Below the pieces are notes generated by a model. It was not told the origin of the DNA. It ran no database searches and worked only from the letters and a program-made list of their open reading frames with translations. Shown here one piece after another: positions 5,212 through 19,851 of a stretch of DNA of 26,112 bases. The DNA comes from Candidatus Heimdallarchaeota archaeon (GTDB lineage: Archaea; Asgardarchaeota; Heimdallarchaeia; Heimdallarchaeales; Heimdallarchaeaceae). Numbering within the stretch: the stretch's first letter is position 1; each line of letters starts with the position of its first letter. Location: assembly GCA_030668875.1 (NCBI GenBank), contig DAOVER010000040.1, positions 1 through 26,112 on the forward strand, written 5' to 3'. A program made the translations under genes and the position numbers.

Positions 5212-5628
5212 ATGCCAGATATAACAAACACGGAAAAAACAAGAATTCGTTCAACTGCAATAAGATTAGTGCATAAAATATGGGCATCCCCTTTCAGTGA
5301 AGGCGTCTTGATATATTCAGATCTTTCTGAAGATCTCTATATGAAATCTGCTAGATGGCGTATCTGTCTACGATGTGGTACAATAGATCAGAAAGAAAAA
5401 ATGATCGATGGAAAACATTCCTGTGATTTCAATACCAATAATTTTCCTGTGTTAGTTGCAACATCATGGTACAAATTAAAAGAATACTTTCTAGAGCATG
5501 GTTTTGTGAAACTCGTTGAAAAATATAATCTAAAACTCAAGCCACCAATTATGATCACGAAACAAGTTCCAGTAGAAGTTGAACAAGCGATAATTACAGA
5601 AGAAAAAGCAGTTACTAAAAGCAACTAA
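5212..5628 (+). CDS. Hypothetical small zinc-binding protein, paralog 1 (C-x2-C-x13-H-x-C)
   Basis: MPDI start at 5212 chosen by alignment with paralogs. SARWRICLRCG...HSC...FPVLVATSWYKLKEYF. Confidence 0.85.
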   Translation: MPDITNTEKTRIRSTAIRLVHKIWASPFSEGVLIYSDLSEDLYMKSARWRICLRCGTIDQKEKMIDGKHSCDFNTNNFPVLVATSWYKLKEYFLEHGFVKLVEKYNLKLKPPIMITKQVPVEVEQAIITEEKAVTKSN

Positions 5629-5776
5629 TTTCTATTTTAACTTTGAACCAATTTTACTCTGTTTTTTGATACATATAGACTTTTTTCTCACAAATCTTAT
5701 ATGCTATGTCATCTAAGGATATACATAGTCGTGTATACCATGCTTAACCTAAAGGGGTTTGAAAGGAGTTGAGATC

Positions 5777-6121
5777 TTGCCAGATATTCCTAATAAAGAA
5801 AAGCATTTGATTGAACTTATTGCTGATAGGTATAGTAAAATTCTTTCTCGTCTCAAATTTAGCAATGGATCTTTAGTTTATCAAAGAACCTATGAACAAC
5901 TATACATAAAATCTTCTCGCTGGAAATTCTGTCTGCTATGCGGAAAAATTGCTACTCCAACTGATTTTACCCGAGATATGCACAGCTGTCCCCCTCTTTT
6001 GTTTCAAAAGCACCCTATTTGCTGTTCAACCTCTTGGATAAAATTGCGTGATTTTTTCCTTTCGAACAAATATCTAGAGACTCTTTCTAAAGTTGGAGTA
6101 GAAGTTATTGATGAAAGTTAA
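5777..6121 (+). CDS. Hypothetical small zinc-binding protein, paralog 2
   Basis: TTG 5777 lies 8 nt after AAAGGAG and gives (M)PDI like the paralogs. SSRWKFCLLCG...HSC...STSWIKLRDFF. Confidence 0.85.
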   Translation: MPDIPNKEKHLIELIADRYSKILSRLKFSNGSLVYQRTYEQLYIKSSRWKFCLLCGKIATPTDFTRDMHSCPPLLFQKHPICCSTSWIKLRDFFLSNKYLETLSKVGVEVIDES

Positions 6122-6170
6122 TCATTACATTCTACGAGAATATAAAAAGAAAGAGAATTACCTTAGTATT

Positions 6171-6662
6171 TTATTCTACAATCTGTTCAATTTCAGAAAC
6201 ATCTTCGCTGATTAGTTCTTCTTCTGTGGGTACTATTTCCTCTCTTACAAGCCTGCGCTCCTTAGTTCTTCTAGAAACTCTTCTTTCAACACCAAACTTT
6301 TGTAGAATGTCAACATACTCTCCAGCCTGAAAGAAATCTCTTAACTTTAACCAGCTTGTTGTAACTAGATATGGAAAAGCAAGCTTATCAAAACTTTTTG
6401 TGCATTGATGAGTCTCTTTTGAGAGCTTACTTGTAGAATTGATCTCACCACATTTCAAACAAATTCTAATTCTTGCTTTACCATCATATAATTTTTCAAT
6501 AGTTTCTTGATAAACTTGCAACCCTTCCCCCAAAGGTGCATACAGGAGATCTGTAACAAATTTTTCAGATAAATCTTTTATTATGTTTTTTTCTTTATTT
6601 GTAATTTGATCTGTTGGTCCTCTGTGACCAAAATCTTCTTTGTCACTACTTGATTTATTCAT
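6171..6662 (-). CDS. Hypothetical small zinc-binding protein, paralog 3, with N- and C-terminal charged extensions
   Basis: KARIRICLKCG...HQC...FPYLVTTSWLKLRDFF. Convergent with paralog 2. Confidence 0.85.
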   Translation of the reverse strand: MNKSSSDKEDFGHRGPTDQITNKEKNIIKDLSEKFVTDLLYAPLGEGLQVYQETIEKLYDGKARIRICLKCGEINSTSKLSKETHQCTKSFDKLAFPYLVTTSWLKLRDFFQAGEYVDILQKFGVERRVSRRTKERRLVREEIVPTEEELISEDVSEIEQIVE

Positions 6663-18849: not shown

Positions 18850-18942
18850 CTATTTACCCTCTATTCTAAAACAACTTTACTTTAACTTTAATTTACAGAT
18901 GAAAGATGAAAAATATCTGAGGAGAATCTAGCCCTTCTCCAT

Positions 18943-19635
18943 TTATTTTATAGCCATTTTCAAAGCTGCTAAGGCATGTAATGTTGTTGTATCGAATACT
19001 GGTATAGGACTATCTTCTTGAGTGATTAATAGGGGTATTTCTGTACATCCTAATATTACCCCTTCTGCCCCCTTGAATTTTAATCTTTTAATTACATCCA
19101 GATAACCTTCCCTTGATTCTGGTGTAAGAATATGATGCGTTAATTCTTCCCAGATAACTGTATTAACATACTCTTGATCTTCCTTGTTAGGTACAATTAC
19201 ATCAATACCATATTTGTTCAAAGAGTTTTGATAAAAATCAGCTTGCATTGTGAAAATTGTTCCAAGCAACCCAACTCTCCTTATTCCTTTCTCCTTTATC
19301 GCTTCTGCAGTTGCATCCATAATGCTTATCATTGGAGTGTTGATTTCCACTGTTAATTTTTCGAAAATCTTATGGATAGTGTTGGTTGCAATGATAATAA
19401 TTTCCGCTCCAGCATCTTCCAAATTTTTGGCTGATTTAAGGATGATCTGATAAACCTTCTCCCAAGAATTATCAACCATCAAATTTCTCACAACCTCTAA
19501 GTCTAGACTATCAATTATAAGCAAAGGAGAAGACGCCCCTCCTTTTATTATGTTATACTCTTTAACTAGAATTTTGTAATATTCTATAGTAGATTCAGCG
19601 CTTAAGCCACCAATGATTCCTATTTTTTTCATCAA
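18943..19635 (-). CDS. Aspartate/glutamate racemase family protein, YgeA-like
   Basis: IGIIGGLSAESTIEYY, IATNTIH, LLGTIFTM, ILGCTEIPLL, FDTT. Confidence 0.92.
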   Translation of the reverse strand: MMKKIGIIGGLSAESTIEYYKILVKEYNIIKGGASSPLLIIDSLDLEVVRNLMVDNSWEKVYQIILKSAKNLEDAGAEIIIIATNTIHKIFEKLTVEINTPMISIMDATAEAIKEKGIRRVGLLGTIFTMQADFYQNSLNKYGIDVIVPNKEDQEYVNTVIWEELTHHILTPESREGYLDVIKRLKFKGAEGVILGCTEIPLLITQEDSPIPVFDTTTLHALAALKMAIK

Positions 19636-19656
19636 TACATAGTTCAGAGTTCTTTA

Positions 19657-19851
19657 TTAGAACATTTTCCTATCTTTGGGAAAACACATGTTTCTAGTTA
19701 TTCTCCATCTAGCTGAACCAGTTTGTAAATATTCATGTGTTTTTGAGTATAGCATCATCCCTTTTTCGAATGGGATTTTTGATAAAATAGTACAATACGA
19801 TCGAGCTAAACATCTTATCTTTTTCTTTTTTTCATCGGATATATTTTGCAT
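19657..19851 (-). pseudogene. Truncated fifth member of the zinc-binding family (N-terminal half only, 64 aa)
   Basis: AAAGGAG SD, ATG 19851. Aligns with the paralogs through IPFEKGMMLYSKTHEYLQTGSARWRI, then unrelated sequence replaces CLxCG. Confidence 0.7.

Follow-up and report, generated by a model that had tools for sequence, protein, structure and literature searches.

What is the task of the small cysteine- and histidine-bearing proteins that recur on contig DAOVER010000040.1 of Candidatus Heimdallarchaeota archaeon, and why does a single stretch of DNA hold several of them? The window, by which the whole analysed stretch of 26,112 nucleotides (nt; positions 1 to 26,112 of the contig, G+C content 33%) is meant, encodes four intact members and one remnant of a protein family. 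The original prediction had described them, from the letters of the window, as an unrecognised zinc-binding family resembling an expanded set of regulators or adaptors. Here we present a description of the family, its range and its conservation, together with a palindrome that is located at the promoters of most of its genes and is a new finding of this analysis. With a probability of roughly one half, the genomic context points to a new family of transcription factors that are stabilised by zinc, regulate their own genes and act locally on adjacent ones. The task looks like the familiar one of an archaeal local repressor, carried out by a new protein family whose fold may be new as well.

The protein family, its range and its predicted structure

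Copy 1 is located at 5212..5628 on the forward strand and encodes 138 amino acids beginning with MPDITN; its true start is 5212, and an ATG upstream of it at 5170 falls within a TATA-like AAATTAATATG. Copy 2 (5777..6121, forward strand, 114 amino acids) is a short, nearly tailless form, whose TTG start is preceded by AAAGGAG and is common to its orthologs. Copy 3 (6171..6662, reverse strand, 163 amino acids) is convergent with copy 2 and has an N-terminal extension of the GPTDQIT type and a long acidic tail. Copy 4 (14789..15199, forward strand, 136 amino acids) is found upstream of, and on the same strand as, the genes for a 92-residue protein and a NosD-like beta-helix protein. The gene that had been counted as a fifth member (copy 5, 19657..19851, reverse strand) is a truncated remnant: homology covers about 52 residues, to ARWRI, and ends before the CxxC, and is followed by 13 unrelated residues without CxxC and by a stop 21 nt ahead of the start codon of a racemase gene. 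No palindrome is located upstream of it. A six-frame search of the 3.2-Mb assembly delivered a sixth, intact copy on contig C17 (C17:23576-23974), in which a spacer of x20 separates the ligand pairs.

Copies 1 to 4 align end to end over the core with 33-38% identity and share the consensus MPDI..EK..I...PF..G...Y..T.E.LY...ARW(K/R)xCLxCGxI...HxC...FP....TSWxKL(K/R)xFF. In the six-frame genome search the family profile matched the copies with E values of 1e-46 to 1e-68. Orthologs of copies 1-3 from three sister genomes show ratios of nonsynonymous to synonymous substitution rates (dN/dS) of 0.07-0.26 at dS values of 0.3-2.4; they are under purifying selection and therefore represent expressed, constrained protein genes. 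Because of these profile scores and ratios a chance resemblance among the copies is excluded, and the grouping of the open reading frames (ORFs) at 5212, 5777, 6662(-) and 14789 into one family stands. The spacing C-x2-C-x13-H-x-C, as read from the translations, is exact in these four copies, as had been stated, but it is not a property of the whole family: CxxC-x(11-32)-H-x(1-2)-C occurs in 188 of 199 distinct members, the exceptions being mostly fragments, and 125 of the 188 have x13. An alignment of 95 members contains only four conserved Cys/His positions. C52 and C55 are invariant, as are G56, W87 and F94, while R48, H69, C71, P80, T85 and S86 are conserved in at least 97% of the members (H69 and C71 in 99%). 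The Cys/His set of the predicted zinc site is thus retained in the wider alignment.

The family is present in all 23 genomes of the same genus and in both genomes of a second Heimdallarchaeaceae genus, with 1-10 copies each. In this six-frame profile search of 60 relative genomes, four genomes of three other Heimdallarchaeaceae genera and 30 genomes of other families gave no match. A 34-sequence profile was compared with 300 Asgard genomes and delivered no credible match in the approximately 275 others, the single outside hit being interrupted by four stop codons. An exhaustive profile search of 1.84 billion representative proteins, performed with no length filter, yielded 24 hits (clusters) and no fused forms among them; all true hits comprise 57-156 residues, and a hit of 425 residues (P0121), considered as a longer form of the family, was judged to be spurious, a translated tandem repeat. 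The named database members are all noted as 'hypothetical protein' of Candidatus Heimdallarchaeota or Heimdallarchaeaceae, and nothing relevant was found in a literature search on the family. The family is lineage-specific, occurs in two Heimdallarchaeaceae genera only and belongs to no described family. A maximum-likelihood tree resolves roughly 8-10 orthologous subfamilies, and throughout the genus each of them is found at the same place of a shared syntenic island. A divergent 133-residue paralog of a sister genome (L056:4613-5014; genome G001, contig C16; E 7e-5) contains CLRCGEI...HLC and has TSF replacing TSW, which suggests that the family extends somewhat beyond what the profile captures.

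AlphaFold models of copy 4 (predicted local distance difference test, pLDDT, 76; predicted template modelling score, pTM, 0.69) and of copy 2 (95-sequence alignment; pLDDT 85, pTM 0.81) agree in topology. Two long helices (6-24 and 28-42) are followed by a beta-hairpin bearing the CxxCG (strands 49-52 and 58-60), a variable loop of lower confidence with the HxC, a third strand (81-85) and two short helices (87-94 and 98-105), the first of which starts with the TSW motif. The predicted core of approximately 105 residues thus comprises a four-helix bundle in which helices 2 and 3 are separated by an inserted zinc-ribbon-like CxxC...HxC module. The tail, where present, is disordered in the models and consists of a Pro-rich linker with an acidic end; the short subfamily is tailless. 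The core is mildly basic (isoelectric point about 8-9.5), with conserved basic positions in the zinc knuckle (R48, K50 and K54), in the following helix (K89 and K91) and in helix 1 (K9 and R13). A homodimer prediction with two copies of core residues 1-112 reached a score of 0.28 (mark 0.42) and speaks neither for nor against a dimer. An N-terminal Pro as catalytic residue, in the manner of Fpg or the tautomerases, was considered and rejected, since subfamily 3 has an extension ahead of the equivalent Pro.

That the family would match nothing already characterised has been borne out by all searches. For the five window proteins and 34 members no Pfam family scored above its curated cut-off, and weak hits to SBP, zf-tcix and zf-FPG_IleRS were set aside as generic CxxC matches. 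The family profile found no match among PDB sequences (best E 0.33). Foldseek delivered no match in the PDB for the two models (best E 4.3 and 1.2), and among the AlphaFold DB clusters only the uncharacterised cluster of the family itself (A0A523X7Q6; template modelling (TM) score 0.78-0.83). Exhaustive alignment with 48,161 PDB representatives gave no match, the best Z scores of 4.6 and 4.3 being below the noise level of the tool for helical proteins; POU-specific and lambda-repressor-like domains (Z 3.2-3.7), like the best helical matches (Z 4.3-4.6), are within the noise for helical bundles. The ESM Atlas delivered no match either, with TM values of at most 0.37 in the structure search and a best value of 0.87, under the useful range, in the feature search.

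The weak Foldseek rows of both models are mostly zinc-ribbon insert modules (adenylate kinase LID, sirtuin zinc module, TFIIE/TFIIH ribbons), which fit the modelled central module and prove nothing. With zinc-ribbon and rubredoxin-knuckle modules the modelled family shares the CxxCG on a beta-hairpin. A classical zinc ribbon consists of two CxxC knuckles, two beta-hairpins and a three-stranded sheet, whereas the second ligand pair of the family is an HxC after a loop of 11-32 residues, no second CxxC knuckle is present, and all matches have E values above 1 and TM values below 0.3. The sole recurrent weak sequence hit is the SBP domain (PF03110) of the plant SQUAMOSA-promoter binding proteins, which was hit by 6 of the 34 members over (K/R)FCxxC...C, the lowest E value being 0.04; with respect to the gathering cut-off of 27 bits, copy 2 came best with 14.2 bits (E 0.057). 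The distance from first to last ligand presumably matches that of the second SBP zinc site, and the SBP domain binds a GTAC core, with many of the sites described below containing GTACA. The domain, however, needs two zinc sites (Cys3His and Cys2HisCys, approximately 76 residues), and in the family the first site is missing and the His is placed elsewhere. With 14 bits versus 27, a missing first zinc site and no fold match, the resemblance was treated as chance. The zinc-finger micro-proteins of haloarchaea with C(P)XCG motifs resemble the family in being small, stand-alone, cytoplasmic archaeal proteins with a CxxCG knuckle that occur in paralog sets. They are mostly shorter than 70 residues and possess two C(P)XCG knuckles, whereas the family proteins comprise 110-165 residues with one CxxCG, one H-x(1-2)-C and a four-helix bundle around the module. 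The family falls outside their definition, and neither Pfam nor the exhaustive profile search detected a sequence relationship.

A palindrome at the promoters of the family genes

Alignment of the 90 nt upstream of all copies reveals a TATA-like box (TTTATAT, TTAATAT or TTTAAAG) after purine-rich bases and, directly 3' of the box, ATGTR, then 11 (sometimes 10-13) bases, and then YACAT or TACAC. Most family genes have the 21-bp core palindrome ATGTR-N11-YACAT immediately 3' of their TATA-like box, and so does the gene that comes next downstream. At five promoters of the window the left half-site starts 0-2 nt past a box of the TTTATAT/TTAATAT type, which is preceded by purine-rich bases resembling a B recognition element (BRE).

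Copy 2 is preceded by ATGTC-N11-TACAT (5706..5726), just past a TATA-like CTTATATG and 51 nt upstream of the gene. The palindrome-like ATGTA-N11-TACAA of copy 3 (6682..6702, read on the reverse strand) abuts TTTATAT and is located 20 nt upstream of the ATG. A further site, GTGTC-N11-TACAT (6933..6953, forward strand), begins 2 nt past the TATA box TTATATAT (6923-6930) of a divergent cassette of small ORFs that starts at 6982; its ATGTAGGAC... on the reverse strand is the half-site of copy 3 itself, and both sites share the ATGTAGGA half-site and the geometry. The site at 6933-6953 also overlaps GTCGG repeats. Copy 4 has ATGTA-N12-TACAC (14741..14762), which abuts AAATTAAT and is located 27 nt ahead of the ATG. 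Its putative targets are the 92-residue protein (15356..15634, forward strand) and the NosD-like beta-helix protein (15644..16627, forward strand), whose gene starts 10 nt after the former. Between copy 4 and this pair, directly after CTATTTAT, a tandem array of three 26-bp units is found at 15262..15339. Unit 1 (15262-15287) is a perfect 10+10 palindrome, ATATGTGTCT-N6-AGACACATAT, unit 2 (15288-15313) reads GTATGTG-N12-CACATAC and unit 3 (15314-15339) is degenerate; no other array of this kind occurs in the 3.2-Mb genome. The promoter of the C17 copy contains ATGTAAC, and the NosD-like neighbour of this copy is preceded by two tandem palindromes with TGTAAC/GTTACA arms, TATATGTAAC-N6-GTTACATATA and CTGTAAC-N6-GTTACAT.

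Positions 5-7 of the half-site vary by paralog (GTC, AAC, AGG, ATG or CAT), and the inner bases often agree between the site of a paralog itself and that of the neighbour gene, which suggests paralog-specific operators. In copy 4 the own site reads ATGTATC and the target site ATGTGTC. In sister genomes the promoters of a putative secreted protein of 217 residues contain three tandem units. The helicase promoter region of one subfamily contains ATGTGCAATC-N-TATACAT.

The palindrome is tightly associated with the family genes. ATGT-N11/12-ACA was found within 100 nt upstream of 41 of 85 family genes versus 16 of 435 other genes in the same loci, and these 16 are mostly located directly downstream of a family gene. 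The density of the strict motif is 0.85/kb in intergenic regions upstream and 1.65/kb in those downstream of family genes, compared with 0.03/kb elsewhere in the same loci (one hit in the 39.6 kb of 238 other intergenic regions). The palindrome is kept in about 10 paralog subfamilies, the proteins of which are only about 35% identical. Genome-wide, the strict motif is at chance level, with 43 hits versus 28-43 for control spacings, and a large regulon was rejected on this basis; three of the 43 hits are found close behind family genes. With a weight matrix derived from other genomes, the promoter of the C17 copy was the only one to rank high in this genome (rank 5), the window sites scoring lower because of their spacing and half-site variants.

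In the family-bearing genus (23 genomes) the tandem-array pattern was found 32 times and the reversed control pattern 6 times. The corresponding figures for 35 genomes from other genera are 13 and 6; 33 of these genomes are without a family match, and the remaining two represent the second family-bearing genus, which contributed one hit. The reversed-pattern and other-genus controls behaved as chance. Thirteen of approximately 19 array loci in the family-bearing genus are located within about 150 nt of a family gene, and six hits there, inside coding regions or far from family genes, look like chance. Two arrays are found at promoters without an adjacent family gene, at L070:2190-2234 (genome G022, contig C74) and L071:1787-1881 (genome G013, contig C73). 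One of the genes behind them encodes a 164-residue protein whose N-terminus resembles a signal peptide, the other a protein that begins with a hydrophobic, membrane-like stretch; both may be targets acting in trans.

Proposed local transcription factors and other explanations

Archaeal repressor operators typically consist of a palindrome with conserved outer bases and fixed spacing that directly follows the TATA box. MDR1, LrpA, Phr and members of the TrmB family are examples of repressors that occlude the promoter by way of palindromes at or just past this box. The layout found here is of this type, as the palindrome abuts the core promoter (BRE/TATA) of the family gene and of the neighbour gene; a site at the own promoter, regulation of an adjacent gene and a small local regulon would be further common features. 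The known repressors use helix-turn-helix or winged-helix domains, whereas the family has CxxC...HxC and no recognisable DNA-binding fold. The simplest reading is that the family proteins bind the sites, because the family gene is their only constant neighbour, they are rare elsewhere, and their narrow range matches that of the family.

According to this reading the small, cytoplasmic proteins would be sequence-specific DNA-binding transcription factors. Each protein would bind, probably as a dimer, to the 21-bp palindrome right after the TATA box and would keep the transcription machinery from assembling both at its own promoter, as autoregulation, and at the promoter of the gene just downstream. 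Among the downstream targets would be surface beta-helix proteins of the NosD-like type and proteins that are secreted or located in the membrane; some loci would add a DEAD-box helicase. From the combined evidence we infer binding of zinc and DNA, dimerisation, and repression rather than activation.

Several observations weigh against this reading. The protein is linked to the palindromic DNA by genomic association, and no known DNA-binding fold was recognised by Foldseek and the wide PDB alignment in the two models. A distance of 16 bp, or approximately 1.5 helical turns, separates the centres of the half-sites; such a spacing is unusual if the dimer is compact. No upstream site is present in copy 1, in the LPVIKD group and in the short MPDITDRK group, which is located inside an operon. 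The compared loci are orthologous across sister genomes, so that the counts overstate independence and correspond to about 10 independent contexts upstream and 7 downstream. Finally, the palindrome could be the site of another factor. With regard to the spacing, Gal4-type Zn2Cys6 factors offer a likeness: their CGG-N11-CCG sites, with half-sites 11 bp apart (about 1.5 helical turns), are bound by a dimer of small zinc modules. These factors are, however, fungal, with a six-cysteine binuclear cluster and a coiled-coil dimer, and nothing suggests homology.

The role of another factor deserves the closest attention among the alternatives, although we consider it unlikely. The palindrome would then be the operator of a different regulator, and the zinc proteins would belong to its small, co-regulated set of genes and have another task, for example as acidic-tail adaptors that perhaps work with the neighbouring TPR proteins or DEAD-box helicases. 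Besides the lack of a recognised DNA-binding fold in the family, this would fit the Pro-rich linkers with acidic ends, which are typical of docking tails, and the position of the neighbours: TPR genes are the commonest divergent upstream neighbours (8 of the 90 family copies for which neighbours were counted), and 15 of 30 DEAD-box genes of the cluster found in these loci touch a family gene. The two sister-genome arrays at promoters without a nearby family gene also fit. It is opposed by the family gene being the sole constant neighbour of the sites even at isolated copies outside the island, by the chance level of the sites elsewhere in the genome, by arrays that match the narrow taxonomic range of the family, and by the tailless short subfamily. 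Of the two roles first proposed, that of regulators receives indirect support through the promoter palindromes, and that of adaptors gains none.

A role in RNA binding is improbable. The proteins would be zinc-knuckle factors that recognise the palindromes as 5'-leader hairpins of the mRNA and act on stability or translation, perhaps together with the DEAD-box helicases, the genes of which are frequent neighbours. The triple array would fold strongly as RNA (15262-15356; -27.9 kcal/mol, z -3.7), and its units two and three would be located downstream of the start site if this is placed about 25 nt after the TATA box. The single sites at the family promoters, however, reach folding energies of -0.5 to -1 kcal/mol, and z is about 0 in four of the five; a role at the level of DNA is favoured because they form no stable hairpins and only the triple array would fold strongly. 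By the usual archaeal geometry the left arm, which abuts the TATA box, is upstream of the start site, and the outer four bases are conserved as sequence and not by compensatory change. The conserved property of the sites is their sequence and spacing, not hairpin stability.

Still less credit is given to the Cys2-His-Cys site as a metal sensor or handling site, by which the family would buffer or deliver metal for neighbouring proteins. NosD-type beta-helix genes are often located downstream, and the 92-residue neighbour resembles the nickel-responsive SCO4226-like family (PF14026); this match, however, is below the Pfam threshold (24.8 versus 28.5 bits). The NosD-like family is very large, with 61-126 six-frame matches per genome in five genomes, so that a gene of the zinc-protein family precedes only a few of its members. 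The modelled ligand geometry, in which a beta-hairpin bears the CxxCG knuckle, is typical of structural sites, and the palindromes would be left unexplained. Mobile cassettes flanked by palindromic recombination or transposition sites can practically be dismissed: palindromes do occur on both sides of many copies, copies are found on both strands, in tandem and in convergent pairs, and an insertion sequence (IS) element is present at 340-1299, but the subfamilies hold their positions in the syntenic island across the genus, the divergence of the orthologs keeps pace with that of their genomes and shows purifying selection, every palindrome abuts the TATA-like box of a downstream gene, and no recombinase travels with the copies.

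If the proteins are local repressors as proposed, a more far-reaching picture may tentatively be drawn, which we regard as possible but rather doubtful in its entirety. A structurally new zinc-dependent DNA-binding domain would have originated in one branch of the Heimdallarchaeaceae and multiplied there to as many as ten paralogous local repressors per genome, each of them reading an ATGT core plus three paralog-specific bases and all of them jointly wiring the expression of variable surface and secreted proteins. Hardly any work has been devoted to the transcription regulators of Asgard archaea, and the known archaeal regulators almost all have helix-turn-helix folds of bacterial type. A zinc-dependent factor family with neither a detectable relative nor a recognisable fold would represent a new DNA-binding architecture. 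The candidate operators are mapped to the base, and the two- to three-fold tandem sites with paralog-specific inner bases offer a small system for the co-divergence of regulators and operators. If the reading is true, the family would be a compact natural model of transcription factors and operators diversifying together in a close relative of eukaryotes; the range of two genera limits the general reach of the finding.

The genomic island

The copies occupy a conserved island together with paralogous DEAD-box helicases, TPR proteins and NosD-like beta-helix proteins. The downstream neighbour on the same strand is directly a NosD-like gene in 11 of the 90 copies, a DEAD-box helicase gene in 8, the gene of the 217-residue protein, the N-terminus of which was read as signal-peptide-like, in 7, and a gene for a 92-residue protein, followed by a NosD-like gene in the inspected loci, in 3. 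The association of NosD-like genes with family genes is seen repeatedly, in five subfamilies or more. Hydrophobic segments at the two ends of the NosD-like protein of the window may represent an N-terminal signal peptide and a C-terminal membrane anchor. In other genomes homologs of the 92-residue protein occur in the order putative secreted-protein gene, 92-residue homolog, short family copy. Two tandem paralogs of the DEAD-box helicase are located at 11723-14610 of the window.

The IS-type transposase mentioned above lies at the edge of the island and contains an rve integrase core and helix-turn-helix (HTH) domains. It is followed at 1380-5031 by genes for a flavin adenine dinucleotide (FAD)-linked oxidase, EtfB and EtfA, the latter bearing a 2x[4Fe-4S] ferredoxin domain at its N-terminus, and this trio flanks the island in sister genomes, too. 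On the reverse strand at 23432-24178 a 138-residue PIN-domain protein is encoded directly after an ORF of 109 residues, in a layout like that of VapBC toxin-antitoxin pairs.

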